DNA of 64,000 bases from Brasilonema angustatum HA4187-MV1 (lineage in GTDB: Bacteria > Cyanobacteriota > Cyanobacteriia > Cyanobacteriales > Nostocaceae): the NCBI GenBank assembly GCA_019359695.1, contig JAHHGV010000004.1, positions 98,031 through 162,030 on the forward strand. Reading direction: 5' to 3'. The translations under genes and the position numbers were made by a program. Of the stretch, positions 8,383-53,100 are shown one piece after another. The notes beneath the pieces are model-generated. The model ran no database searches, was not told the origin of the DNA, and saw only the letters and a list, made by a program, of their open reading frames with translations. Numbering within the stretch: the stretch's first letter is position 1; each line of letters opens with the position of its first letter.

Positions 8383-8530
8383 CCGCTAGCCCCTAAGGGG
8401 GCTAGCGGAACCGGAGGTTCTCCCCGATAGCCCTCCGGGGAAGACCTCCGGTCTCGCTGCGCTAACGCCAGTCGCCTGCGGAGGGAAACCCTACCAAGAG
8501 CGCTGGTCTCACCGTAAGGCGTGGCGTTAG
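8383..8530. repeat. GC-rich nested-palindrome dispersed repeat (cyanobacterial SDR/MITE-like)
   Basis: gctagcccctaagggggctagc, ccggaggttctcc...ggagaacctccgg-like arms and gctaacgcca...tggcgttagc inverted repeats. It shares the GCTAGCCCCTAAGGGGGC core with the element at 37150. Confidence 0.55.
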
Positions 8531-28760: not shown

Positions 28761-28789
28761 GGATTTATTCATTAATTGGACAGGAGGAA

Positions 28790-29110
28790 ATGAAGAGCTT
28801 AATCCTGATAATTGCGGGAATTGCAGTTGCTGTGGGAATTATCGGTGGTGTATTAATAGTTGGATTAATTTCTCTCCAACGACGACGCCAAGTAGTAGAT
28901 AGCTTGGTACGTAGTGATAATATCATCGGTTGTTTTGGAACGGTAGAAATTCCTTTGAATGACAACAGTCCTGGAAAGGTACGTGTTAATCTTAAAGGTT
29001 CTTTAGTAGATTTTGTTGCCTTTACTGACGAAACTCAACAACTTCATCAAGGTGACCGTGTTGTTGTTGTTAGCATGAAGGGCAATAAAGTATGGGTGGT
29101 ATCTGTGTAG
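28790..29110 (+). CDS. NfeD-like short membrane protein with C-terminal OB-fold (YuaF/YqiJ type)
   Basis: 106 aa. N-terminal TM helix then a beta-rich C-terminus (KVRVNLKGSLVDFVAFTDE...GDRVVVVSMKGNKVWV). Canonical partner of flotillins. Confidence 0.55.
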   Translation: MKSLILIIAGIAVAVGIIGGVLIVGLISLQRRRQVVDSLVRSDNIIGCFGTVEIPLNDNSPGKVRVNLKGSLVDFVAFTDETQQLHQGDRVVVVSMKGNKVWVVSV

Positions 29111-29193
29111 AGAGTGAGGTAACTTGAGGCAAAATAACACAAAAGACCACGCACTAAAAACAACAATTAATCACTAATGACTAACTACTAACT

Positions 29194-30534
29194 ATGAAAT
29201 TTCAGCAAAACATAGCGACGGTGCCAGTAGCACAAATTAATATTGACACACCTACAAACAAGAACAACAATGGTGTTGAAGGATTACTTTTTAGCAGTAT
29301 CCCCATTGCACTTTCTATCTTTAGCGCTGTTATATTTGTATGGTTCGTTAAATCTTTTTTGTGTATCTGCAAACCCAATGAAGTATTGGTTCTTTCTGGA
29401 CGTAGGTGGCGTACTCAGGATGGACAAGAAGTCGGTTATCGAGTGCTATTAGGTGGACGGGCTATTCGTATTCCGATTGTGGAAACTGTTAAGCGTATGG
29501 ATGTCACCACTATGCCGGTACGGGTGGAGGTACGGAATGCTTACGCCAAAGGAGGAACACCTTTAAATATCCAAGCAATTGCCAATGTGAAAATTTCCAC
29601 AGATCCAGGAGTTGTGGGTAATGCTATTGAACGCTTTTTGGATCGCGATCGCTCAGAATTAACTCGTGTTTCTCGCGAAACTCTAGAAGGTTATCTGCGG
29701 GGTGTCGTCGCCACCCTCACACCTGAAGAACTCAATGAAGATCGCCTCAGTTTTGCCCACCGTATCGCCTCTGATGTTAGCCGTGACCTTACAAAACTAG
29801 GATTACAACTCGACACCCTGAAAATTCAAAGTGTTTCTGATGATGTAGATTATCTCAAATCTTGGGGACGCAAGCAAATTGCTCTTGTTGTCAAAAATGC
29901 GGAAATTGCTGAATCAAATGCGATCGCCCAAGCAGAACAAATAGAAGCCCAATGTGAGGAACACGCCCAAGTCGCCAAAACCCAAGACAGAATTATTGTG
30001 CTGGAGAAAGAAAACGAACTCCGCACAATCAAGGCAAAGCTAGGACAAAAAGCCCGCTGTGAAGAAGAAATTACCACAGCTGTTGCTCAAGAAAAGAAGG
30101 CAAAAGCTGAACAAGTTCTGCAAGCATTACGTTCAGAATTAGAACGCTTGCGCTTACAAGCAGATGAAATTCTCCCAGCCCAAGCCGAACGCCAAGCCCA
30201 AGAACTCCGCGCCAGAGGGGAAGCCGCTTCTTTGGAAGAAAATGCTAAAGCCGCAGCTTTAGTAAACGATATTCTCTCCCAAGTTTGGCAGCAAACTGGA
30301 ACAGATGCTTCCAAATTATTCCTAATCCAACAAATTGAAACTGTACTCCAAGAAGCAGTGCAGATTCCCAAGCGTATTCAACTCAAGAAAGTCAACGTGA
30401 TTGACAACGGTGATGGAAAATCTTTAGCCAGCTTAGTCAACGTTTATCCCGAAATTGTATTTCAGTTCCTAGAAAGCGTCAATCAAACCCTTGGTATTGA
30501 TGTCACAGGAACTCTCAATCAAGGAAAGGACTAA
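29194..30534 (+). CDS. Flotillin-like SPFH/band-7 protein (FloT/YuaG-like)
   Basis: N-terminal TM, SPFH core (EVLVLSGRRW...GYRVLLGGRAIRIPIVETVKRMDV...RNAYAKGGTPLNIQAIANVKI), then a long EA-rich coiled-coil flotillin tail. Confidence 0.75.
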   Translation: MKFQQNIATVPVAQINIDTPTNKNNNGVEGLLFSSIPIALSIFSAVIFVWFVKSFLCICKPNEVLVLSGRRWRTQDGQEVGYRVLLGGRAIRIPIVETVKRMDVTTMPVRVEVRNAYAKGGTPLNIQAIANVKISTDPGVVGNAIERFLDRDRSELTRVSRETLEGYLRGVVATLTPEELNEDRLSFAHRIASDVSRDLTKLGLQLDTLKIQSVSDDVDYLKSWGRKQIALVVKNAEIAESNAIAQAEQIEAQCEEHAQVAKTQDRIIVLEKENELRTIKAKLGQKARCEEEITTAVAQEKKAKAEQVLQALRSELERLRLQADEILPAQAERQAQELRARGEAASLEENAKAAALVNDILSQVWQQTGTDASKLFLIQQIETVLQEAVQIPKRIQLKKVNVIDNGDGKSLASLVNVYPEIVFQFLESVNQTLGIDVTGTLNQGKD

Positions 30535-30576
30535 GGTTTTAAGTCACTCACTATTTCCAAACTCCCGAGGTTTTTT

Positions 30577-31287
30577 ATGAACACCTTAAAAACTTTTGCT
30601 ATTACCATGATTGCGGTGACTTTGGGAACGCAGAACCCATCTGCAGCATTGGTTAACAAACCAGTATCCCATCATAATGTAGTGTTTATAGCACCTAACC
30701 AGCCAGATCTCATTGCCAACGATGTTACTTATTCCACAGCACAGGGCGATACTCAAATTTGGATGCCAGGGCGTATAACCGAGAAGAAACCCCAACAATT
30801 AAGTTCTGAAAGTCCAACAACTAAAACGGTATATTTCATCCTCTACGTAGACTTACCTAAAGAAACTGAATATCTATCTACTTTAGGGCTTCGGAAAATT
30901 ATGCAAGATGAATTCCGAAAGAAATTCTCTGGTAAACAAGAGTTGTCTGGTAAAGTCGTTCGGAGTACCGATCTTGTGATTGAGGGGTATCCTGGTACAG
31001 AGTTTGTGGTGCAACATTCTAATGGAGCCTTTGGACAATATCAGTCTTTTATAGTTAAACGACGCATGTACTTTCTTGGAGCTGTAGCACCTGGTGAATT
31101 AACTACAGAAACAGCTAATTTCTTCGATTCTTTCCGAGTATATCCAGAGCAGATTCGTTATCCCGTTGAACGCACCCCAGCGAAACAAGTTATGGGTAAA
31201 GTCCCCCAACTCACATCTTTTGGGTACAAAAGCAAAGGAACGACAATTCCTGAAATGAGTGATTGCCTACGGCAGAGCTACGCTTAA
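30577..31287 (+). CDS. Secreted hypothetical protein (signal peptide) wedged between the two flotillin genes
   Basis: MNTLKTFAITMIAVTLGTQNPSAA signal peptide. No recognisable domain. Confidence 0.5.
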   Translation: MNTLKTFAITMIAVTLGTQNPSAALVNKPVSHHNVVFIAPNQPDLIANDVTYSTAQGDTQIWMPGRITEKKPQQLSSESPTTKTVYFILYVDLPKETEYLSTLGLRKIMQDEFRKKFSGKQELSGKVVRSTDLVIEGYPGTEFVVQHSNGAFGQYQSFIVKRRMYFLGAVAPGELTTETANFFDSFRVYPEQIRYPVERTPAKQVMGKVPQLTSFGYKSKGTTIPEMSDCLRQSYA

Positions 31288-31364
31288 CGCCTACCCAAAG
31301 CTAATGACGTTAATTAACCTGTTTTAATGTTCTACAAATTACACTTGAATTCTGGAGAAAGATT

Positions 31365-32636
31365 ATGGAAATAATCGCTTTACTACTGGGAATTTTTGGT
31401 ACTGGAACTGCCGCCGGTTGGTGGGTGATTCGTAACTTATACTATATTTGTCAACCAAGTGAAGTACTCATCTTCGCTGGCAGTCGCACTTCTCTTGGTG
31501 ATGGGAGTTCGGTTGGATACCGTTTAGTGAAAGGAGGTAGTAGGATTCAAACCCCGCTATTAGAGAAAACTTTCCGCATGGATTTGACAAACATGATTAT
31601 TGAGTTGCGAGTATCGAATGCATACTCAAAAGGCGGAATTCCCCTGACAGTTGAAGGAGTCGCAAATATCAAAATTGCTGGAGAAGAACCGACAATTTAC
31701 AATGCAATTGAGCGACTCTTGGGTAAAAGCCGCAAAGATATCGAACAGTTGGCAAAGGAGACGTTAGAGGGAAATCTGCGAGGAGTATTGGCAAACCTGA
31801 CGCCAGAACAGGTAAACGAAGATAAAATAGCCTTCGCCAAAACCCTGCTTGAAGAAGCTGAAGACGATTTGGAAAAGCTGGGATTGGTACTAGACAACTT
31901 GCAAATTAAGAATATCTTCGATGAGGTGCGCTATCTTGATTCAATTGGACGCAAGCAGCAGGCAGAATTGTTGCGAGATGCGCGTATAGGAGAAGCCCAA
32001 GCTAAAGCCGAGGCAATAATTAAAGTTTCAGAAAATAACCGTATTACCAAACTCAAACAAATTGAACGGGATTTAGAAATTGCTAAAGCAGACGCAGAAC
32101 GCAGAGTTAAAGACGCGCTGACAAAGCGGACTGCTATGATCGCAGAGGTAGAAGCGGTTGTTAATGCCCAAGTAGCAAAGGTGCAGGCAGAAGTTGGGGT
32201 GCAAACCGAACGCATCAAACAGGTTGAAAATCAGTTACAAGCTGATGTGGTTGCACCAGCAGAAGCAGAATCCCAACGGGCGATCGCCAAAGCAAAAGGA
32301 GATGCAGCCCGCATTGTTGAACAGGGTAAAGCCCAAGCAGCCGGGACGCAGTATCTAGCCGAATCTTGGCAAAACGCTGGTGCATCTGCCCGAGAAATCT
32401 TCATCTTCCAAAAATTAGAACCATTGTTGCGAATGTTGGCTGCAGGAGTCCCAGAGGTACAGGTAGACAATTTGACTGTCATTGATGCTACAAATGGTGG
32501 TAGTGTTCCCAAAATGGCGTCATTCTTAGAGCAGTTACGGCAGACAACTGGTGTCGATGTTACAAAGGTTATCAATCAATTTAAGTCTGAAGACAAAAAT
32601 AGCAAGTACGAAATCAGATCACATCTGGAAAAGTAG
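31365..32636 (+). CDS. Flotillin-like SPFH/band-7 protein, second paralogue
   Basis: Same architecture as 29194-30534 (EVLIFAGSRT...GYRLVKGGSRIQTPLLEKTFRMDL...SNAYSKGGIPLTVEGVANIKI). Confidence 0.75.
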   Translation: MEIIALLLGIFGTGTAAGWWVIRNLYYICQPSEVLIFAGSRTSLGDGSSVGYRLVKGGSRIQTPLLEKTFRMDLTNMIIELRVSNAYSKGGIPLTVEGVANIKIAGEEPTIYNAIERLLGKSRKDIEQLAKETLEGNLRGVLANLTPEQVNEDKIAFAKTLLEEAEDDLEKLGLVLDNLQIKNIFDEVRYLDSIGRKQQAELLRDARIGEAQAKAEAIIKVSENNRITKLKQIERDLEIAKADAERRVKDALTKRTAMIAEVEAVVNAQVAKVQAEVGVQTERIKQVENQLQADVVAPAEAESQRAIAKAKGDAARIVEQGKAQAAGTQYLAESWQNAGASAREIFIFQKLEPLLRMLAAGVPEVQVDNLTVIDATNGGSVPKMASFLEQLRQTTGVDVTKVINQFKSEDKNSKYEIRSHLEK

Positions 32637-32660
32637 CCATAAGACTTGTAGGGGTAAGTT

Positions 32661-33383
32661 ATGCCAAGACTATTGCCAGGTAACCCTGAACAATCAAATC
32701 AGACTGACGATGACAGTATGGATGAATTAGAAGTACAAATCCTTCAACTTGTGAAACAAACCTGTCAGCATCCGAGAGGTAGTATTGAACGTCAAAAAGG
32801 ATTGCACAAACTTTTTTTACTAATTCAAAAAACAGGTAAACTGTTGCGGGGTACGGGCGTACCTGATGCGGAGGAAGCACTACAAAAAACCTGGCTATAT
32901 TTTTGCTGCAATCTTTGTGAGGCTTCTACCGCCAAGAATCCCTACAATCCAGAAAAAGGTAGTATCATAACATGGCTCAACGGGTATTTGAAGTACAGGT
33001 TAGAAGATAGTCGTAGGGTTGGTAGTAATAATACAATTCATCCCATACAAGATCAAAATGGTGAAGAGCTAGATCCAGTAAATTTAATTCCAGCACGATC
33101 GCAAGCACCACCCATATTACAAGAAATCCAGGAATGGTTAAAAAAAGAAGCCAATAATTTGCGTCGCATCCACGTACAAAATCGTCCAGATATCAACTGT
33201 CTAGTTTTGATAGAACGTCGCTTACCACCCGAAACTCCCTGGCAAGATTTATCTCAAGAGTTCGGCGTATCCATATCCACCCTCAGCAGGTTCTATCAAC
33301 GTGAGTGTTTTCCCCGCCTTCTCAATTTTGGCAAATCCCAAGGTTATTTTGACAGCGAAGGTTATTTTAATATCGAGTCCTAA
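32661..33383 (+). CDS. Sigma-70-family-like protein with a region-4-type HTH at the C-terminus
   Basis: CLVLIERRLPPETPWQDLSQEFGVSISTLSRFYQRECFPRL reads as a sigma region 4. The N-terminal part is only weakly region-2-like. Confidence 0.4.
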   Translation: MPRLLPGNPEQSNQTDDDSMDELEVQILQLVKQTCQHPRGSIERQKGLHKLFLLIQKTGKLLRGTGVPDAEEALQKTWLYFCCNLCEASTAKNPYNPEKGSIITWLNGYLKYRLEDSRRVGSNNTIHPIQDQNGEELDPVNLIPARSQAPPILQEIQEWLKKEANNLRRIHVQNRPDINCLVLIERRLPPETPWQDLSQEFGVSISTLSRFYQRECFPRLLNFGKSQGYFDSEGYFNIES

Positions 33384-33400
33384 TTTTTGAATTAACGGCT

Positions 33401-34558
33401 ATGAGTTACTCCACCCAACAGCAAATCATCTCTATTCCCATTCCGGCGAAATTTCGAGAAACTGCTCTGGAATTTGCCCAAGAACAACCAACTCAACAAA
33501 AAGCTAAACAAGTGTATGTAAATACTCTAGCTGTACTAGTGGTCAAGAGCTACTTAGAAATGCTGGATATTCCGACTGAATTAGAAGCCAGTTATAGCTG
33601 GAATCAATACGGGCGCTTGATGGCAGATGTTGCAGATTTATTGCTTACCGGAGTAGGACGTTTAGAATGTAGAGCAATCAGGACAGGCGATCGCCTTTGT
33701 TATGTTCCTCCTGATGTTTGGGACAATCGTATTGGTTATGTTGTTGTAGAACTAAATCAAACCTGTAAAGAAGGAAAAATCAGGGGATTTTTACCTGATA
33801 TTCAAACATCACAAATTGACATTGAAGAGTTGCAACCATTGGAAAGATTAATAGAATCTTCCCATCTTGTGCATTTGCGGCAATGGCTAGAAGGTATCTA
33901 CAAATCCCAATGGCAAAGTATTGAAGAATTATCCTGTCAAAGAAGTCCTCAAGTAGCCTTTCGTTTTAGACGGACAGGAGGATTTCAGTTAAATACATCA
34001 CAAGAAGTATGGAAAGTAATTGATCAATTATATCCCCATCGCAGTTGGGAAAACAACTTACCATTAGAACTTTTAGAAAAAATGTCTGGTAATCAAGTTG
34101 AAGACGTAGAATCACCTGAGGATAACATTAACTCTGTTAGTGTTACCGATGTACTTGCTCAGCTTTTAAGAACAAGCGAAGATGAAGAAAAGCGTTGGAA
34201 GCTTGCAGAAACTTTGTGGACGATAGAACCAAAGCACTCTGCTATCAGTGCTAGACGCATCATGGATTTAGGGATGCAACTCGCCAATAATCCAGTGGCT
34301 TTAATGGTAGCAATTTTATCTAAACCTGACAAAACTGTTGCTGTTCTGTTGCGAGTATATCCGATAGGAAACCAGCCCTACCTACCACCAAACTTGCAAT
34401 TAGCTGGATTGTATGAAAATGGACAGCCGTTTCTTGAAGTCAAAGCCAGAGAAGTTGATAATTACATCCAATTAAAATTTTGTGCAGAATTCGGTGAAAG
34501 ATTCGGAGTTCAGGTTAGTATAAATAATGCAAGCATTACGGAACACTTTATCATTTAG
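33401..34558 (+). CDS. DUF1822-like cyanobacterial protein
   Basis: 385 aa. The family name is from memory of cyanobacterial sigma-70/DUF1822/CHAT gene trios. No catalytic motif seen. Confidence 0.35.
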   Translation: MSYSTQQQIISIPIPAKFRETALEFAQEQPTQQKAKQVYVNTLAVLVVKSYLEMLDIPTELEASYSWNQYGRLMADVADLLLTGVGRLECRAIRTGDRLCYVPPDVWDNRIGYVVVELNQTCKEGKIRGFLPDIQTSQIDIEELQPLERLIESSHLVHLRQWLEGIYKSQWQSIEELSCQRSPQVAFRFRRTGGFQLNTSQEVWKVIDQLYPHRSWENNLPLELLEKMSGNQVEDVESPEDNINSVSVTDVLAQLLRTSEDEEKRWKLAETLWTIEPKHSAISARRIMDLGMQLANNPVALMVAILSKPDKTVAVLLRVYPIGNQPYLPPNLQLAGLYENGQPFLEVKAREVDNYIQLKFCAEFGERFGVQVSINNASITEHFII

Positions 34559-34586
34559 CTAAGTCAATGAGTACAGGGTAAGAAAA

Positions 34587-37097
34587 GTGGACATGCGGGT
34601 TATCTTCGGGATTGAACAAGGCAGTTTTGAGAAAGGATTTCCTGTCAGAGTTAGAATTGGCGAAGAAGGTAGACCTGATTATGACGAATTTTCTGGTAGG
34701 TTACCGCCCGCATTGGCAGTTAAGGAAAACTACGAAAATTGGCAAAGAATTTATCGTAACTTACCAGCCAATTGGTTAATCACCCTTCCTGAGAGTCAAA
34801 TAACAAATGTATCTACTTTAGAAGATTGTAATCAAGCTGCTCAAAAGTTTCAATCCAGTTTCAACGAATGGTTAAATCAACCATCAGTACGAAAATTAGA
34901 GCGACAATTTTTACTAAAAATTGGTAATTTACAGGATGTGCGCTTTATTTTGCAAACGCAAGAATCTTTGCTACAGCGACTTCCTTGGCATTTATGGGAT
35001 CTTTTCAGTCATCCCAAACCGGAAATTATAGTAAGTTCGGAGTACGAACCATCTAAAAAGAAGTTAAAAACTCCTGTTAAAATCCTCGCCGTTTTGGGCG
35101 ACAATCAAGGTATCAATATTACACAAGATTTGTCAGCCCTAGAAAACAATTTACCAGGCGCAATAATTGAATCGTTAATAGAACCATCATCTCAAGAACT
35201 GAGAGATAAATTATGGACGAAATCTTGGGATATTTTATTTTTTGCCGGACACAGTTGTAGCCAACAAGATGATAGTTCGGGAGAGATTAAAATTAATGCC
35301 AACGAGAGTTTACCGTTGGAACATCTACGCCATAGTCTCAGACATGCTGTCCAAAAAGGATTAAAACTAGCAATTTTTAACTCTTGCGATGGACTTGGAC
35401 TGGCACGTAATTTGGCTGATGCACGCATTCCCTATACAATTGTCATGCGCGAGCCTGTTCCCGATATAGTAGCACAACATTTTTTGGAATATTTTCTCAC
35501 GGCATTTGCGGCTGGTGAATCTCTATATGCATCTGTACAACAAGCTCGTGCACGCTTGCAAGAAGAATGGGAAAATCAGTATCCTTGTGCTTCGTGGCTA
35601 CCCGTTATTTATCAAAATACCGCAGCAGCAGAACTGAAATATCCCCGACAGCATCAACAGCAAAGTTGGAAAAAAGTTGCTTTGCAAACAGCTATTGTTG
35701 TCGGTGCAATAGCAAGTTTTGGTGTTATTTCATGGCGTGTTATTGATGAATTTCAATCCCGTGCTCGGTTTAGTTCTGGCGATAAAATATTAGTGAGGAC
35801 ATTCACAACTTCCTATAAAAAAGAGGGCGTACAGGCGTTTCGACAGGAAAATTACAACCTAGCAATCAGTAAGTTTGAAAAGTCTTTGCGGCAGTATCCT
35901 AACGATCCAGAAACGTTGATATATCTAAATAATGCCAAGATTGCTCAAAAACCAGCACTGACAATTGGTGTTCCCGTTCCCATTGCCACTAACCCCAATG
36001 TTGCCCAAGAAATTCTCCGGGGAGTGGCACAAGCTCAACAAGAGATAAATCATCAAGGTGGTATGAATGGGAAGTTATTGAAAGTTGAAATCGCAAACGA
36101 TGATAACAATCCTGCTATTGCTGTAAAGGTTGCTGATAGATTTGTGCAAGAAAAAGATATATTAGCAGTTGTTGGGCATAACAGCAGCGATGCTAGCCTT
36201 CCAGCCTCTGAGAAATATCAGGCGGGAAAATTGGTGATGATTTCACCAACCAGTAGTTCCACAAGATTAACAGATCGCTCAGATCGCACCGACGGTAACT
36301 ATATCTATCGGACAGTTATCAGCTTTACGACAATTGCAGATGCTCTGGCGCAATATACTAAAACTACTGGCAAAAACAGAATTGGTACCTGTAATGATTC
36401 TAACGCAGCAGACCAGTCATTTAAAAATGATTTTGAGAAGGCAATTGAGCAAAAAAAAATTCAATTAATTAATATTGATTGCGATTTTGCGTCCAAGAAT
36501 TTCCAGCCAAAAACTATTATAAAAAATGCAAAAGAACAAGGTGTAAATGCCATACTTCTGAACCCTCAAGTAAACAGAATGGATAGAGCGATTGCCGTAG
36601 GCAGAGCTACGCTTAACGCACTCGCCAAAGCAAATCAAGGTCAAATTACGTTATTAGGAAACCCCAGTTTACAAACCAAAGATACTCTGGCTGCTGGCGA
36701 TGCTGTTAACGGGATGGTGATAGCAGTTCCTTGGGACGCCACCCTCTCCCCCGACAAAAACTTTGTCCAAAATGCATACAAATTATGGGGTGATACAGAC
36801 TTAGTTACCTGGCGTACAGCTACCGCCTTTGATGCTACCAAAGTCATTGCAGCAGCACTTAAACAAAAGGATACTAGAGACGGAGTACAACAAGCGTTAT
36901 CTGGTACTTTTTCCCTACAGGGAGCAACAGGTGCAATTAAGTTTTTACCTTCAGGCGATCGCGTTGATAATGCTGTATTAATACAAGTCAAACCCAATCC
37001 CAAAGCTTCCACTGGCTACAGCTTTGAACCAATAAAACCCTATGCAAAGCCGCATCAGTCTAGGGGACAAAATTTTAGTTCAAGACAACCTCAGTAA
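34587..37097 (+). CDS. CHAT protease domain - TM helix - TPR-like linker - periplasmic LivJ-type ligand-binding domain fusion protein
   Basis: Caspase-like His/Cys dyad context (ILFFAGHS ... LAIFNSCDGLG). TM VALQTAIVVGAIASFGVISW. C-terminal type-I PBP block (ALTIGVPVPIATNP...ILAVVGHNSSDASLP...KLVMISPTSSS). Confidence 0.65.
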   Translation: MDMRVIFGIEQGSFEKGFPVRVRIGEEGRPDYDEFSGRLPPALAVKENYENWQRIYRNLPANWLITLPESQITNVSTLEDCNQAAQKFQSSFNEWLNQPSVRKLERQFLLKIGNLQDVRFILQTQESLLQRLPWHLWDLFSHPKPEIIVSSEYEPSKKKLKTPVKILAVLGDNQGINITQDLSALENNLPGAIIESLIEPSSQELRDKLWTKSWDILFFAGHSCSQQDDSSGEIKINANESLPLEHLRHSLRHAVQKGLKLAIFNSCDGLGLARNLADARIPYTIVMREPVPDIVAQHFLEYFLTAFAAGESLYASVQQARARLQEEWENQYPCASWLPVIYQNTAAAELKYPRQHQQQSWKKVALQTAIVVGAIASFGVISWRVIDEFQSRARFSSGDKILVRTFTTSYKKEGVQAFRQENYNLAISKFEKSLRQYPNDPETLIYLNNAKIAQKPALTIGVPVPIATNPNVAQEILRGVAQAQQEINHQGGMNGKLLKVEIANDDNNPAIAVKVADRFVQEKDILAVVGHNSSDASLPASEKYQAGKLVMISPTSSSTRLTDRSDRTDGNYIYRTVISFTTIADALAQYTKTTGKNRIGTCNDSNAADQSFKNDFEKAIEQKKIQLINIDCDFASKNFQPKTIIKNAKEQGVNAILLNPQVNRMDRAIAVGRATLNALAKANQGQITLLGNPSLQTKDTLAAGDAVNGMVIAVPWDATLSPDKNFVQNAYKLWGDTDLVTWRTATAFDATKVIAAALKQKDTRDGVQQALSGTFSLQGATGAIKFLPSGDRVDNAVLIQVKPNPKASTGYSFEPIKPYAKPHQSRGQNFSSRQPQ

Positions 37098-37137
37098 CGA
37101 GAAACAATTGGGCGTGCAAGCTTTTGCAGCTGGAAAT
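36952..37137 (+). repeat. Direct repeat copy 1 (covers the last 146 nt of the CHAT-PBP gene plus 40 nt downstream)
   Basis: About 90% identical to 39605-39789. Confidence 0.7.
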
Positions 37138-37149
37138 TATGATCAGGCG

Positions 37150-37560
37150 ATAGCTAGCCCCTAAGGGGGCGCTGCGCAAACGCTGCTGCGCTCCGCGCAG
37201 ATCGCACATTTTCAAGCATCTGTATGATGGGCGATTGCGCAGAGCGCAGACGCAATCATGCGTATCGCACTTGTTGACCCCATACCAAAGGATACCGAAG
37301 GGAGCTACCCCTTTTCAGTCAGCTTCCTACCGACTGACTGCGTACTCTACTTGCTTCAGCCAGGATTTTGCTATCCGGTTAGCTGCTCAAAAGGTACTCA
37401 TACCAATTGTCCATGATAGTTTGCGCGGCGTAGCCATAGATGCACTTAATATTTATGAAACGAACCGCCTTAGCGCAGCGTGTCCGCAGGACATAGACGA
37501 GCCAGCGCCGTGGGCAAGTCTCCCGACTTGAGGCGACTGGCGTCGCCAAGGACGCCAAGA
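37150..37560. repeat. GC-rich SDR/MITE-like repeat cluster (GCTAGCCCCTAAGGGGGC core, GCGCAG-rich arms, ggcgactggcgtcgcc palindrome)
   Basis: Read directly. ORF 37235-37531 lies inside it and is treated as spurious. Confidence 0.45.
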
Positions 37561-37833
37561 ATTAAAGAGTAAGTATTAAGTGCAAGTTTACAGAGAAATG
37601 GTATCAATCAGTTCATCGGGCTCATTGACAAGTTTGGCATAAATGATTTCCGAATTTGCCAACAGTGTCTGGGCTATTTTTACCCCATTAGCGACAATGA
37701 GTGACTACTTCAATTGCGTGGGTGCGGCTATACCCCGTGGTAAGTGCATAAGTTAATTTCACTTACACCTAATAAAGAATCAAAGGGTATCTATTATCCT
37801 TACTCAAACTCAACCTTCATTAAGGAACATTAT

Positions 37834-39531
37834 ATGAGTGGATTTGGTCACGGTTCTGTCGGGACACGGGAACAAGAATTTACGACTCTACTGGAATTAA
37901 GAAAAGAAGGCTATCCAACACATAAACTTGTGGAACTTGCCGCAAATATAAAGGCAGAAGTTGATACGGTTAAAGATGGACCAGATCCTGAAGAAAACCT
38001 TTGGGTACCAGCAGGCTATACCTACTTTGGTCAATTCATCGATCACGATCTGACCTTCGATAACACATCATCACTGAACCCAGCAGATGCGGGACAACAA
38101 GATCGTTTACCTAGCAACTTGCGTACGCCACGCTTTGATTTGGATTCGTTATATGGCGACGGACCGGATGCTCAGCCTTTCTTATATGCTGAGGACGGTG
38201 CCACTTTGCTGTTCAAAGATAGTGATAAGAATCAATTAAGTGTTGAGCAAGCAACTGAAGACTTACTGCGTAGCCCCAACGGTCGTGCTATTATTGGCGA
38301 CAAGCGCAATGATGAAAACTCTATCATCAGCCAAATCCATTTGGCATTTGTAAAATATCACAATGCAGTGGTTCAAAAGCTTAAGAAAGATGATCCACAA
38401 TTAACTGGTACTGCCCTATTTAATCAAGCACGCAATGAGGTGCGCTGGACTTATCAAAAGCTGGTGATCGAAGACTTTTTACCGCGCATTGTCAAAGCTG
38501 AAGTGCTTGCTGACCTTAAGGAAGCCACAACACGTGAAAAGCGGCAAAAACTCTACGCCCTTTATACTAAAGACAAGCGTCAAAACTTGCCCCGCGAGTT
38601 TGTGGTGGCGGCTTACCGCTTTGGACACTCAGGAGTAAGGACAGGTTATCGGCTCAATACAAACAAACGCTTGAGTATTTTCCCACCCAGCATGCCACCC
38701 AAGAACCCAGAAGATGACGACAAAGACAGTTTGCTGGGATTTGATCCACTACCGAAAACCCATGTCATTGATGACTGGGGTCGCTTTTTTCCAAATACGA
38801 AACCTGGCGTTTTCCCCACCGAACCTCGAGACCAGGCCGCAGATGAAAAACCGCGTCCTGAAGTCCGGCTACAATTTGCTTACAAAATTGATCCAACCTT
38901 GGTAGATCCACTTGGTGTTTTGCCACCTCCGGTGCTACCAACCAGCGCGACGGTTGGGGGATTGGTTAAGGAAGTTGAGGACACAATAAGCCCTGATAAG
39001 TTACCAGACAAAGAGGTTAATCCTCCGCGCCCTTCGTTAGCCCTCCTCAACTTACTTCGTGGCAACACATATAAAGTGCAAGGCGGACAAGCGATCGCAA
39101 ATGTACTCAAGAAAAATTGTTTTCCGGTTAAAATACTAGAACCAAAGTACCTATCTACGAGAAAAGCGGTTGAAGGAAAGAATGGGGAGGCATTGTTCAA
39201 ATTTGAAGAAATCGATTCAACTCTTCAAACAGATACTCCTCTGTGGTTTTATATCTTGGCTGAGGCTCAAGCCTCAGTGGTGGATGCAATCAAATTAGAT
39301 AAAGATGGCACGTTCAACGAAGAACAACTACTCAATGGAGGTGGAGCCAAAACCCAGCTAGGCTGGGTGGGCGGTCGGATTGTAGCCGAGGTGTTTTATG
39401 GTCTGTTGGATTCGGATAGTGAGTCCTACTTCAATGCAGCACCTGAACACTGGAAGCCCATCCTAGGAGGCAATGGAGAAGTCATCTTCGCTAACCTTCT
39501 CAAGTTCGCCGGACTAACTATCGCAAATTAA
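37834..39531 (+). CDS. Animal-type haem peroxidase/dioxygenase superfamily protein
   Basis: Distal-His signature FGQFIDHDLTF and proximal-His block AAYRFGHS. LGWVGGRIVAEVFYGLL near the C-terminus. Start set at ATG 37834 (AAGGA 8 nt upstream) inside ORF 37744-39531. Confidence 0.75.
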   Translation: MSGFGHGSVGTREQEFTTLLELRKEGYPTHKLVELAANIKAEVDTVKDGPDPEENLWVPAGYTYFGQFIDHDLTFDNTSSLNPADAGQQDRLPSNLRTPRFDLDSLYGDGPDAQPFLYAEDGATLLFKDSDKNQLSVEQATEDLLRSPNGRAIIGDKRNDENSIISQIHLAFVKYHNAVVQKLKKDDPQLTGTALFNQARNEVRWTYQKLVIEDFLPRIVKAEVLADLKEATTREKRQKLYALYTKDKRQNLPREFVVAAYRFGHSGVRTGYRLNTNKRLSIFPPSMPPKNPEDDDKDSLLGFDPLPKTHVIDDWGRFFPNTKPGVFPTEPRDQAADEKPRPEVRLQFAYKIDPTLVDPLGVLPPPVLPTSATVGGLVKEVEDTISPDKLPDKEVNPPRPSLALLNLLRGNTYKVQGGQAIANVLKKNCFPVKILEPKYLSTRKAVEGKNGEALFKFEEIDSTLQTDTPLWFYILAEAQASVVDAIKLDKDGTFNEEQLLNGGGAKTQLGWVGGRIVAEVFYGLLDSDSESYFNAAPEHWKPILGGNGEVIFANLLKFAGLTIAN

Positions 39532-39604
39532 GCAAGTGCGCTTTTACCGCTCATTACAGCAATTTTCCGGTAAATAGACCACAGTGATTGAACCAACAAT
39601 CATG

Positions 39605-39789
39605 CAGGCGATCGCGTTGGTAATGCTGTATTAATACAAGCCAAACCCAATTCCAAAGCTTCCACTGGCTATAGCTGGCTATAGCTTTGAACCAAAAAGA
39701 CTCTATCCAAGGCCGCATTAGTCTAGGGGACAAAATTTTAGTTCAAGATAACTCCAGTAAGCAGAAACAATTGGGTGTGCAAGCTTTTC
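39605..39789 (+). repeat. Direct repeat copy 2 (degenerate pseudo-3'-end of the CHAT-PBP gene, with an in-frame stop and a 10-nt internal duplication)
   Basis: Aligned by eye to 36952-37137. CATCAG to CATTAG change. ggctatagct duplicated. Confidence 0.7.
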
Positions 39790-39825
39790 TATAAATTTTG
39801 TTATAAAACAAAATTTATAGAAAAG
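39784..39825. repeat. 42-nt AT-rich perfect palindrome (cttttctataaattttgtt-ataa-aacaaaatttatagaaaag), followed by the GGGGTGC...GCACCCC hairpin at 39833-39858
   Basis: Read directly. Sits at the right junction of the duplicated segment, 3' of the M50 protease gene. Confidence 0.6.
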
Positions 39826-39876
39826 CATACTTGGGGTGCTTTACTTTGTTGGCACCCCAAATATATTAACAACTGT

Positions 39877-41073
39877 TTACGATTGCAGCGATTTTGCAAT
39901 AACTCCTAATTGCAAACCAGGCGGATAACTCCCTTCCTCTTTTATCCGCTTAATCTCGGCTTCAGTGATCCGCAAATTTAACTTTTGTGCTAACTCCTGC
40001 ACAATATCCCCTCGATCAATCACACCAGCGACAGCATCAGCAGGAGAAAGCACGGTGATGCGGGGTAATTGTTCATTTTCCAGCTTGTTAATCACCTCTG
40101 CTATAGGAGTTGACTCAACAACAGTGGGAATTTCTGTCAGGGGATGCACTATACTTTGCACCGTTAGGGTTTCCCATTCACTTCTTTCCACAAGGCGCAA
40201 ATCGTCTATGGAAATGATGCCCCGGTAACGTCCATCAGATTCGGCAAAATAAACTCCAGGAGTGTTAGTCTCCAAAAGGTAGGAGTCGGCGAAAGAACGC
40301 AAAGTCTGATTAGCATCGACGACCCGAAACTCACGAGTCATGGCATTAGCGGCAACCAGACTGAGTAAGGTTTCTTGTAAAATTGTTATGCGGTCATAGC
40401 TATTAGCATTACGGATACCAAACCAACCTAACAAAGCTATCCACAAACCAGTGACTAATTCCCCAGTAAAATAATCTACTGCCAGGCCTAGGGCGATCGC
40501 CCCATAACCCAAAATTTGCCCTGCTTTTGCTGCTAACCGTACCGCTTGAAAACGGTTCCCTGTTGTTTTCCACAAAGCTGCTTTTAAAACTTGTCCGCCA
40601 TCTAAAGGCAAACCAGGAATCAGGTTGAACAGTGCCAAAACTAAGTTGATTCTGCTTAAATCTCCAACCATAACGCTGGCAGGACTGTTATCAGGCAAAA
40701 CATTTACTAGCAGGCTGAGGAGGACAAACAGGACAACACTCACGAATGGTCCAGCAATTGCAACTTGAAATGCTTTTCCTGGGGTTTTGGATTCTTCTTC
40801 GATAGAAGCAATACCACCAAACAGAAACAGGGTAATCGAATTGACTTTTATACCTTGCGATCGCGCAACTAAGCTATGACCCAATTCGTGCAATAATACT
40901 GAACCAAAGAGCAGCAATGCCATCACCACTCCAGCACTCCAAGCTAGAGTCGTTCCCCATGCTTGGTAAGCGACTCCAAAGTTAAGGGTTGCCAGCCCTA
41001 AAATCACAAACCACAGAGGGTCTAAAAACAGTGGAATTCCGAATAAAGACCCGATTTTCCAATTTGTTTGCAT
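39877..41073 (-). CDS. Site-2-protease-family (M50) zinc metalloprotease with C-terminal CBS-domain pair
   Basis: HELGHSL zinc motif in a TM helix. Second metal ligand region LPLDGGQV. C-terminal tandem CBS-like segments. Confidence 0.75.
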   Translation of the reverse strand: MQTNWKIGSLFGIPLFLDPLWFVILGLATLNFGVAYQAWGTTLAWSAGVVMALLLFGSVLLHELGHSLVARSQGIKVNSITLFLFGGIASIEEESKTPGKAFQVAIAGPFVSVVLFVLLSLLVNVLPDNSPASVMVGDLSRINLVLALFNLIPGLPLDGGQVLKAALWKTTGNRFQAVRLAAKAGQILGYGAIALGLAVDYFTGELVTGLWIALLGWFGIRNANSYDRITILQETLLSLVAANAMTREFRVVDANQTLRSFADSYLLETNTPGVYFAESDGRYRGIISIDDLRLVERSEWETLTVQSIVHPLTEIPTVVESTPIAEVINKLENEQLPRITVLSPADAVAGVIDRGDIVQELAQKLNLRITEAEIKRIKEEGSYPPGLQLGVIAKSLQS

Positions 41074-51645: not shown

Positions 51646-52860
51646 ATGCTACCAACAGAGTTACTAAGTCACAGGCAAAATGGGGAAGAAATTATCCCGA
51701 AGAGACTGAAGATTGATGATAATCATTTGGCGATCGCCACTGAGTTAACAAGTTGTTTTCAGGAGGCGGTAGGTGAGACTCAAGGTACACTTGAGCGTCA
51801 GTTGTCGGAGTTGGAGGGGGATACTCCAGATTATAGACTCAAGCGGGGTTTAGCTTATATCCTCAAAAGCAGTTTCTCCACTTTTGAGGTGGTGAGTCCT
51901 TTGGAACCTCAAATGTTACGAGAAAGGGTTTTTGCTTTGGCGGCGAAGTCTGCTCCGAGTCGCGAGTTGACAGAAACGACTTTAACAAAGATTGCTGATG
52001 AATTGAGTCATGAACTTGAGCGTGAAGTTTTGCCAAAACAAGTTGGTGAAGGATTATATGCGGATTTGTCTGAGAATAAGATTTTAACTGCTTTTGATGC
52101 GCCAGCACCCCATGATTTATTGCATCGCTACAATTTATCTCAGGTGCAGGGGGTGTTTTATAGAGCAAGTCAGTTGGTGATAAATGCTCATCGCAATGTG
52201 CCTGGACAATATAAGCTTTTGTTTCGCTACCTCAAGTTGTTTCAATTAATGTCTTATATTGAGGGAGATGCTGACCACGGTTTTACAATTACAATTGATG
52301 GTCCGACGAGTTTGTTTACTCCCAGTACGCGGTATGGTTTGGCTATAGCGAAGCTAATCCCGGCTTTACTTCATGTCACAAAATGGAGTCTTTCCACTAT
52401 ATTACAAATTCGTGATCCATACACAAATACATGGAAAACGGGACGTTTTACTCTCAATTCTGAATGCGGTTTGGTGTCTCATTATTCCACTGGTAAACCA
52501 TACGATAGTATGTTGGAAGAGTCTTTTGCTGATAAGTGGGAGTCAACAAAAACGGATTGGGTGTTGGAGCGAGAGGTTGACTTAATTCCTATTCCTGGAA
52601 GTGTGATGATTCCTGATTTTAGATTAGTCCATCCTGATGGGCGATCGCTGTTATTAGAAATAGTTGGTTATTGGCGACCAGAATATTTACAAAAGAAGTT
52701 TTCCCAAGTACGACGTGCAGGACGTGATGATTTGATTTTGGCAATTTCAGAGCGATTGAATCTGGAGAAAGCCGGAGTTCAATTAAATGATGTGCCTGCT
52801 AGAATTGTTTGGTTTAAAGATAAATTGTTGCCGAAAGCGGTGTTAGCAGTGATCGAGTAA
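51646..52860 (+). CDS. Bax1-like nuclease (DUF790), the usual XPB partner
   Basis: 404 aa immediately downstream of the XPB gene. C-terminal PD-(D/E)xK-like segment IPDFRLVHPDGRSLLLEIVGYW. Confidence 0.55.
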   Translation: MLPTELLSHRQNGEEIIPKRLKIDDNHLAIATELTSCFQEAVGETQGTLERQLSELEGDTPDYRLKRGLAYILKSSFSTFEVVSPLEPQMLRERVFALAAKSAPSRELTETTLTKIADELSHELEREVLPKQVGEGLYADLSENKILTAFDAPAPHDLLHRYNLSQVQGVFYRASQLVINAHRNVPGQYKLLFRYLKLFQLMSYIEGDADHGFTITIDGPTSLFTPSTRYGLAIAKLIPALLHVTKWSLSTILQIRDPYTNTWKTGRFTLNSECGLVSHYSTGKPYDSMLEESFADKWESTKTDWVLEREVDLIPIPGSVMIPDFRLVHPDGRSLLLEIVGYWRPEYLQKKFSQVRRAGRDDLILAISERLNLEKAGVQLNDVPARIVWFKDKLLPKAVLAVIE

Positions 52861-53100
52861 GTAGGTAGGCGTGAATAAACCTCACTATGTAACAGAATGT
52901 AAATTTGTCAAAACCCTTGCGATTGGATTGAGTCGATGGAAGGATGAAAATGTTTCTTCCTCACTCCTATTTTCATAGGGAATATGGGCATTACATCCCT
53001 TAATGGTGGGTTTTACCCAATTCAGGAAGGGGACTGGAATTGTTAAGATTAGAGAAATCACAATATATTAAAACAGCCAGCACAACTGAGTTACAAGACC

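Follow-up and report, generated by a model that had tools for sequence, protein, structure and literature searches.

In a 64-kb window of the genome of the cyanobacterium Brasilonema angustatum HA4187-MV1, a haem peroxidase gene is located downstream of a shortened sensor-protease gene encoding a CHAT domain and one periplasmic-binding (PBP) domain, and is bounded by two direct repeats of 174 and 184 nt, referred to here as copies A and B (window coordinates are for the + strand unless marked otherwise). Comparison with orthologous loci indicates that this lineage has lost the DNA from about 70 nt into the region of the second PBP domain (PBP2) to the intergenic sequence next to a convergent M50 protease gene, and that the lost stretch is now occupied by the peroxidase segment, a 7-nt filler and a second copy of a 174-nt sequence derived from the end of PBP1 and the linker behind it. 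The history that we favour, with moderate confidence, starts with a single old illegitimate event, in which insertion of the segment was coupled to duplication of its flank; a deletion and insertions of small GC-rich repeats came afterwards. What remains is an ordinary rearrangement scar confined to this lineage, which represents neither a new kind of mobile element nor a new system. It provides a worked example of a multidomain gene that loses a domain, and of an apparently resident gene that moves, in a repeat-rich polyploid cyanobacterium with no recombinase.

The shortened CHAT-PBP gene and the duplicated domain junction

Seven orthologous loci were compared with the window, namely those of Brasilonema sp. 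CT11 (L001), Scytonema tolypothrichoides (L002), Nostoc parmelioides (L003), Dolichospermum (L004 and L005), Brasilonema octagenarum (L011) and a JGI relative (L012). L001, L002, L011 and L012 share the same flanking synteny, and the peroxidase is found at this position in none of the seven. The insertion proposed in an earlier sequence-only reading of this DNA is therefore borne out by an empty-site comparison, the peroxidase being missing from the locus in CT11, B. octagenarum, the JGI relative and Scytonema, but it is not a clean insertion, as the PBP2 body and the DNA toward the M50-proximal intergenic sequence have been lost.

Orthologues of the CHAT-PBP gene in Nostocales (CHAT-PBP-PBP or CHAT-PBP), which are annotated as ‘ABC transporter substrate-binding protein’ and located beside DUF1822 and flotillin genes, have the same synteny as the window. 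The orthologue is a single CHAT-PBP1-linker-PBP2 open reading frame (ORF) of 1231 amino acids in CT11 and 1246 in Scytonema, and CHAT-PBP-PBP proteins of ~1235 residues are the rule among the closest Nostocales homologues, the 834-residue protein of B. angustatum being the only short one among close relatives. Its ORF comprises 836 amino acids from a GTG codon (834 in the database call, from the ATG at 34593), has Pfam matches to CHAT, Peripla_BP_6 and ANF_receptor, and is 88% identical at the amino-acid level to residues 1–815 of the CT11 orthologue. Although synteny, CHAT and PBP1 are conserved, the second PBP of the CHAT-PBP-PBP orthogroup is absent here. The annotation of the 834-residue protein as an ‘ABC transporter substrate-binding protein’ should accordingly be read with the caution that it is a secondarily shortened CHAT-PBP-PBP, and that copy B is dead DNA.

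Homology to the relatives’ genes passes the stop codon at 37097 and continues to 37151, breaks over 37152–37202, and resumes at 37203–37223 (…IAHFQASV) before it ends; a tblastn alignment across this remnant reads …AAGNYDQA, then 17 extra codons, then IAHFQASV. Because homology extends beyond the stop codon, copy A is identified as the PBP1-end/linker/PBP2-start junction of a gene that ancestrally had two PBP domains. The source of the repeats is thus an internal inter-domain junction of a ~1235-residue CHAT-PBP-PBP gene, and not the native 3′ end of the CHAT gene from which the sequence-only reading had derived them. Copy A is collinear with L001 8567–8738, L002 12380–12553 and L011 8357–8528, and the ancestral reading frame runs through it as ...SRISLGDKILVQDNLSNEKQLGVQAF. 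The present stop at 37097 results from a single additional base, T37033, at the boundary between PBP1 and the linker. In Anabaena and Dolichospermum, orthologues that naturally have one PBP terminate at the position of this frameshift (…TGYNFVPK, stop) and so have the same end point as the B. angustatum protein, whereas the state in B. angustatum is secondary, arising from the frameshift and the replacement of PBP2, and leaves a nonsense tail of ~21 residues. Part of the 51-nt element that splits the PBP2 remnant recurs in the CT11 peroxidase locus (L007 14925–14954) and elsewhere in the window (8387–8402).

A remnant search of 37224–37833 and 39532–39604 detected no trace of the PBP2 body (about 1.15 kb, a domain of ~415 residues) and none of a 2-oxoglutarate (2OG)-Fe(II) oxygenase gene, and no separate PBP2-only protein from B. 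angustatum is present among the homologues. The gap between the CHAT gene and the convergent M50 gene (39532–39876 in the window) is itself variable, being empty in CT11 and Scytonema, filled by a 2OG-Fe(II) oxygenase gene in B. octagenarum (L011 9831–10421) and the JGI relative (L012 9807–10325), and by the peroxidase here.

A dN/dS ratio of 0.25–0.27 for CHAT and PBP1 against CT11 indicates that the shortened gene is still under purifying selection and, since ω is about 0.26 and the CHAT-PBP architecture occurs naturally, the gene is probably functional. Within it, the PBP1-coding part (35661–37154) has diverged from CT11 with a dS of 0.28, a dN of 0.076 and 82–90% DNA identity, compared with about 95% identity for the rest of the locus, a pattern that could reflect relaxed constraint or the recombinational acquisition of an older allele.

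Precise alignment of the two copies matches 36952–37125 (174 nt) with 39605–39788 (184 nt) at 16 mismatches and one 10-nt gap (BLAST E 2e-59), equivalent to 90.8% identity over aligned bases and 85.9% with the gap counted, and no third copy is present in the 64-kb window. The two-copy repeat of ~90% identity reported in the sequence-only reading is thus real, as are the CAG-to-TAG change and the 10-nt internal duplication in copy B, but clear similarity ends at 37125 and 39788 rather than at 37137 and 39789, so that the repeat takes in the last 146 nt of the ORF and 28 nt behind it, not 40. The length difference is a tandem duplication of CTGGCTATAG in copy B. The CAG-to-TAG change (position 37056, C in copy A and T in copy B) holds for the current frame of copy A, and in the ancestral frame it is a synonymous ATC/ATT difference of ambiguous polarity.

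Relative to four outgroups, copies A and B have three derived substitutions in common and the additional base at the same spot; by this comparison each is the closest relative of the other, and the duplication took place within the B. angustatum lineage. Copy B carries eight derived substitutions plus the 10-nt duplication, and copy A four to five, with three differences ambiguous, which points to faster decay of copy B. Copy B matches the relatives’ PBP1-end/linker sequence at 81–83%. The possibility that it is the leftover 3′ end of the lost PBP2 was rejected because it matches that junction and contains the linker, not the end of PBP2. A HIP1 site, GCGATCGC of cyanobacterial genomes (PMC5861425), is located 3 nt from the left boundary of both copies (36955 and 39608), an arrangement that could be due to chance given the 41 HIP1 sites in the window.

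The peroxidase and its segment

The DNA between the copies contains, as described from the sequence, a GC-rich repeat cluster and a haem peroxidase gene with the FGQFIDHDL and RFGHS motifs. The encoded protein is identical to KME46_04855 of B. angustatum HA4187-MV1 and matches PF03098 (E 2.4e-27, 96.1 bits against a cutoff of 25), and residues Q67, D70, H71, D72, R158, E161 and H265 are invariant in 30 homologues (FGQFIDHDL, GDKRNDEN, RFGHS). The closest solved structures are remote, beginning with a cyanobacterial peroxidase (8s6c, E 3e-6), followed by eosinophil peroxidase and then alpha-dioxygenase (E 3.5e-5). An AlphaFold model is poor (pLDDT 56), and Foldseek ranks myeloperoxidase and lactoperoxidase above cyclooxygenase at TM scores of 0.2–0.3, which are uninformative beyond the superfamily level. 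A near-invariant Tyr261, which the model is too poor to position, is found four residues before the proximal His265 (AYRFGH; window 38614–38628). In cyclooxygenases, alpha-dioxygenases and linoleate diol synthases the catalytic Tyr is three residues before the proximal His, and mammalian peroxidases have Phe at the position matching Tyr261.

The motifs G-Q-x-x-D-H-D and R-x-x-E are typical of the peroxidase-cyclooxygenase superfamily except for families 4 (cyclooxygenases) and 7 (Zamocky et al. 2015, PMC4420034). By this motif criterion we assign the enzyme to the peroxidase-type members (criteria of families 1–3, 5 and 6) rather than to the cyclooxygenase/dioxygenase type. The label ‘oxylipin-type dioxygenase’ given in the sequence-only reading is therefore corrected to peroxidase-type, as both signatures are present here and are not conserved in family 4 (PMC4420034). 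The enzyme is plausibly a short bacterial peroxicin. It resembles peroxicins and peroxidockerins (PMC4420034) in PF03098, G-Q-x-x-D-H-D, R-x-x-E and the proximal R-F-G-H-S, and is in this case a single-domain cyanobacterial protein of ~565 residues; however, it is remote from any solved structure, and the likeness is one of motifs.

Two parts of the inserted DNA, 37224–37271 and 37715–39597, are collinear with one stretch of CT11 on another contig (L007 9835–11752, about 92% identity), the peroxidase locus of that genome, where the peroxidase has a deoxyhypusine-synthase-like gene on one side and a CCP_MauG gene on the other. The small left-end element has its immediate flanks, ATGATG and ACT, in common with the CT11 copy alone and not with other copies of the element, and its linkage to the peroxidase is therefore one of descent. 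At the right end, homology to CT11 stops at ...GAACCAAC. The intervening 443 nt contain no recognisable coding remnant. Within them, a unit resembling a miniature inverted-repeat transposable element (MITE) has no second copy in the window, and a contig of the Logan assembly made from the same reads breaks at 37577, inside its right inverted end, which implies that the unit is multi-copy in the genome.

Upstream of the peroxidase gene, an ENA relative also has the 3′ half of the 5′ region (about 70 nt, with the ribosome-binding site), and Nostoc KVJ3 has the last ~30 nt of it. Because this region is conserved across CT11, Stigonema, the ENA relative and Nostoc KVJ3 in unrelated genomic contexts, the segment appears to bring its own expression signals. 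The dS between the peroxidase genes of B. angustatum and CT11 is 0.19, inside the backbone range of 0.06–0.23, and the peroxidase therefore looks like a resident Brasilonema gene that moved to a new address within the genus and not a recent foreign import. Three congeners have three peroxidase states, since CT11 and B. angustatum carry the gene at different loci and B. octagenarum has it at neither of them. A homologue of 70% identity is located on a Nostoc megaplasmid, and a phage origin was dismissed as no phage match was obtained.

ORFs of the spacer have no Pfam match and encode no integrase or transposase, and a search for RNA families returned none. Terminal inverted repeats are missing from the segment ends (37126/37224 against 39597/39604), the sole unit with inverted ends being the internal MITE-like piece. 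The length of the repeats bears out the earlier judgement that they are far too long for a transposon target duplication. Four other peroxidase loci have no flanking duplications, and the repeat pair is accordingly better regarded as a one-off scar than as a property of a cassette.

GC content reaches 50–53% at 37000–37600, compared with 41.8% for the whole window, and at least three small repeat-type elements are present in this spacer. Hairpin-forming GC-rich units of 40–50 nt recur in the window, in CT11 and in B. octagenarum, and small mobile repeats occur in Nostocales genomes. The units described here are of the same type as the small dispersed GC-rich repeats of cyanobacterial genomes, and one of them interrupts a HIP1-like site in the dead PBP2 start, but they decorate the scar, with no sign that they caused the rearrangement. 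The value of the locus is local, lying in Brasilonema genome evolution and in a possible weak link of small repeats and HIP1 sites to breakpoints.

Proposed origin and alternative explanations

Three junctions delimit the rearranged DNA. The first (J1, at 37223/37224) reads …CAAGCATCTGT / ATGATGGGCG, with 1 nt of possible microhomology. The second (J2) reads …GATTGAACCAAC / AATCATG / CAGGCGATCGCG and contains the 7-nt filler. The third (J3) reads …GTGCAAGCTTTT / CTATAAATTTTG, has no microhomology, and is followed by homology to the M50-proximal intergenic DNA that starts exactly at 39789 (L011 10510, L012 10486). The 9-mer CAATCATGC across J2 (39597–39605) is found elsewhere in the window solely at 37253–37261, within the loop of the left-end element of the segment. 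The filler may have been templated from that element, although the statistics are weak, with at least two matches of the 9-mer in 11 of 100 shuffles. By eye, CATGCAGGCG at J2 also equals, in reverse complement, the left-end element in its B. octagenarum form (L015 6383–6422).

We propose that these junctions could derive from a single illegitimate repair, non-homologous or by template switching, probably between sister chromosome copies of a polyploid organism. A left chromosome end broken at 37223 would have been joined to a copied or excised peroxidase fragment, the other end of which would have been attached at position 36952 of a chromosome copy, a point 272 nt upstream of the first break. 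The outcome would be a tandem duplication of 272 nt (the equivalent of 36952–37223) with an insertion at its join point, and the window has the corresponding arrangement, with a left copy at 36952–37223 (bearing the later 51-nt insertion) and a right copy that restarts at 39605. A deletion that joined ...GCTTTT to CTATAAA would have eliminated the second PBP2 start together with the body of PBP2 and DNA beyond it. Because a remnant of the PBP2 start survives beside copy A alone, this deletion, which ends copy B, must be later than or simultaneous with the duplication. Small GC-rich repeat insertions, the 10-nt duplication and point changes would have followed, and the 443-nt piece would have been gained here or lost from CT11. 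The peroxidase would now be expressed from its own 5′ region, with transcripts presumably ending at the ancestral hairpins downstream, and copy B would have no function.

Illegitimate end joining and replicative template switching, including fork stalling and template switching (FoSTeS) and microhomology-mediated break-induced replication (MMBIR), yield duplication-insertion products. The B. angustatum locus is similar to such products in having an insert placed exactly where one copy ends and the following one starts, 0–1 nt of microhomology, a short filler and no recombinase signature. Unlike a simple product of this type, its right copy is cut and fused to intergenic DNA, so that a further deletion or a third switch is required; moreover, the event is old and overlaid by small-repeat insertions, and its mechanism is read from the end sequence alone. 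The divergence between copies A and B is about 0.10, of the same order as the backbone dS between B. angustatum and CT11, and the event is therefore old, roughly of the age of the species split, and not recent as the sequence-only reading had implied.

Several observations weigh against this history. An additional base gained before the duplication and independent origins of the base in the two copies are equally parsimonious, and if the copies had exchanged sequence by gene conversion, the age estimate would be a lower bound. The mechanism is deduced from a single end state, with no intermediate genome found. The position of the peroxidase in CT11 may itself be derived, since the CT11-type neighbourhood is present but holds no peroxidase in the two complete B. 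octagenarum genomes, and the CT11-type locus of B. angustatum itself was not recovered: a search for the CCP_MauG neighbour gave no orthologue, and a Logan match of 85% belongs to another sample. J1 and the stretch 37175–37576 are spanned by the contig of the metagenome-assembled genome (MAG), assembled with metaSPAdes, alone, with Logan contigs breaking at 37174 and 37577. No independent record of J1 was found in exact-pattern scans of metagenome contigs, which also missed J2, used as a control; the scanned collection is without the B. angustatum genome, since the control is missing too.

The last two points are also those on which an assembly artefact would rest, in which the MAG was mis-joined, or DNA collapsed, through multi-copy GC-rich repeats at 37175–37576. 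The MAG was derived from a short-read metagenome of a Hawaiian soil culture (SRR12347719; 2x150 reads, 300-bp fragments, metaSPAdes; PMC8354539), which also speaks for this reading. However, the independent Logan assembly of the same reads covers copy A and the start of the first small repeat, and one of its contigs (L006) contains the peroxidase, filler, copy B, hairpins and M50 gene contiguously at 100% identity to the window. The left half ends in the CHAT gene, of which the M50 gene is the neighbour in four syntenic relatives, so that both halves belong to one locus even should the middle be imperfect; the element at 37224–37271 is linked to the peroxidase in CT11 too, and the homologues include no separate PBP2-only protein of B. 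angustatum. We consider an artefact distinctly improbable.

The homology-mediated integration suggested by the sequence-only reading is possible but is not the most economical explanation. It would take the form of a Campbell-type single crossover, in which a circle carrying the peroxidase and a ~174–270-nt copy of the PBP1-end/linker recombined with the chromosome. Cyanobacteria are recombination-proficient, direct repeats of a chromosomal segment flank the insert as they do in Campbell-type integrants, and the left boundary of the repeat is 3 nt from a HIP1 site in both copies. This route would nevertheless need a prior illegitimate event to build a circle of PBP2 start, peroxidase and PBP1 tail, which adds a step, and it leaves the loss of the target’s PBP2 and the join to CTATAAA unexplained. 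Both copies carry lineage-specific derived bases, so that there is no sign of a divergent donor. No circular donor is known either, and the junctions lie outside homology, J1 having 1 nt of microhomology, J2 a filler and J3 neither. We regard this origin as unlikely. A multi-step route through the tandem domains, which corresponds to the decayed tandem duplication of the sequence-only reading, appears improbable as well. In this scenario, an unequal crossover between the tails of PBP1 and PBP2, both with TCAGGCGATCG, came first and generated an intermediate CHAT-PBP1-L-PBP2′-(PBP1 tail-L)-PBP2 (L, linker), after which the peroxidase replaced the PBP2′ body and the last PBP2 was deleted. The two tails are indeed paralogous, with an 11-nt identity that contains HIP1, and ACAATCA to the left of copy B resembles the bases that precede this motif in the PBP2 tail of CT11, but this match amounts to 5–7 nt with a 3-nt indel. 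Three independent events would be needed, the replacement would have to end by coincidence within about 5 nt of the earlier crossover, and there is no three-PBP orthologue among the 120 best homologues.

Mobility of the peroxidase itself has been weighed in two forms. A site-specific integrative element or transposon remnant at the CHAT 3′ end, with the peroxidase as cargo and the repeats as attachment (att) sites or a long target duplication, seems to us very improbable. The insert is bounded by direct repeats that take in the present 3′ end of the gene, and the megaplasmid location of the 70%-identical Nostoc homologue could be read in the same direction. Yet the peroxidase is the sole gene between repeats, with no integrase or transposase and no domain match in spacer ORFs, the segment ends carry no terminal inverted repeats, four other peroxidase loci show no flanking repeats, and no phage match was obtained. 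The empty site of the relatives has an extra PBP2 of ~415 residues instead of an intact gene with one att copy, and target duplications of transposons and insertion sequences measure a few to ~15 bp. We give equally little credence as to an artefact to the idea that the peroxidase unit (5′ region, gene and 3′ flank) is a transposase-less itinerant module that moves within Brasilonema when small GC-rich hairpin repeats and HIP1 sites undergo breakage or template switching, for which the hints are the three states in three congeners, the left repeat shared with CT11, the filler that matches the repeat loop, and a duplicated flank that starts 3 nt from HIP1. A weaker variant of this idea is that the position of the peroxidase behind the flotillin-DUF1822-CHAT-PBP module is functionally selected.

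Gene order and right flank

The genes and features of the locus follow one another as flotillin-like, hypothetical, flotillin-like, hypothetical, DUF1822, CHAT-PBP, spacer, peroxidase, copy B, two hairpins and the convergent M50/CBS gene. Coordinates are collected in Table 1, in which L007 denotes the CT11 peroxidase locus.

Table 1 Features of the rearranged locus in the 64-kb window of B. angustatum HA4187-MV1
Feature	Position	Strand	Remarks
Shortened CHAT-PBP1 gene	34587..37097	+	CHAT protease domain and one periplasmic-binding domain; last ~21 residues out of frame
Repeat copy A (PBP1 end and inter-domain linker of the ancestral CHAT-PBP-PBP gene)	36952..37125	+	Holds +1 frameshift base T37033
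PBP2-region start remnant	37126-37151 and 37203-37223	+	Split by 51-nt GC-rich insertion 37152-37202; aligned to L001, L002, L003
51-nt GC-rich hairpin-type element	37152-37202	+	In HIP1-like site GGCGAT/CGCA, GAT on both sides
Segment left end (6 nt and ~40-nt GC-rich dispersed element)	37224..37271	+	92% to L007 9835-9882
443 nt missing from CT11 peroxidase locus	37272..37714	+	Insertion here or deletion in CT11
MITE-like unit, 144 nt, GC-rich core	37441-37584	+	15-nt inverted ends TGCACTTAATATTTA / TAAGTATTAAGTGCA
Peroxidase 5′ region with AAGGA ribosome-binding site	37715..37833	+	Conserved in CT11 and Stigonema
Haem peroxidase gene, 565 amino acids, peroxidase-cyclooxygenase superfamily	37834..39531	+	PF03098, peroxidase-type active site
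Peroxidase 3′ flank, segment right end (66 nt)	39532..39597	+	98% to L007 11687-11748
Filler AATCATG	39598..39604	+	Matches neither parent
Repeat copy B (non-coding, decaying duplicate of PBP1-end/linker)	39605..39788	+	10-nt tandem duplication 39665-39684
Ancestral intergenic DNA with two hairpins	39789..39876	.	Palindrome 20+4+20 at 39783-39826; second hairpin about 39832-39859
Convergent M50/CBS-domain protease gene, right syntenic anchor	39877..41073	-	Pfam

The M50 protein is 97.5% identical to that of CT11 at the amino-acid level, and its gene has the same position relative to the CHAT gene in L001, L002, L011 and L012. The first 6 nt (GCTTTT) of the palindrome next to it belong to copy B, and the palindrome is perfect in this genome alone; the RNA fold predicted for this intergenic DNA has an energy of -41.6 kcal/mol (z = -7.2). 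A palindrome created by the junction was rejected, given the imperfect version in B. octagenarum and the JGI relative and the homology from 39789. In these relatives the imperfect palindrome starts at CTATAAA, and the right arm in the window has apparently been ‘corrected’ to match the GCTTTT of copy B. The perfection of the palindrome could be the result of quasipalindrome correction by template switching.

Upstream, the module (NfeD)-flotillin-hypothetical-flotillin-hypothetical-DUF1822-CHAT-PBP(-PBP), to which no function is assigned, is kept in Nostocales at 28761–37097 of the window and in L001, L002, L003, L011 and L012, and the small hypothetical gene between its flotillin genes (30577–31287) is itself variable among relatives. 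A further dispersed repeat of 68 nt is located at 52858–52925 of the window and, at 87% identity, at L007 14525–14592, just downstream of the CCP_MauG gene of CT11.

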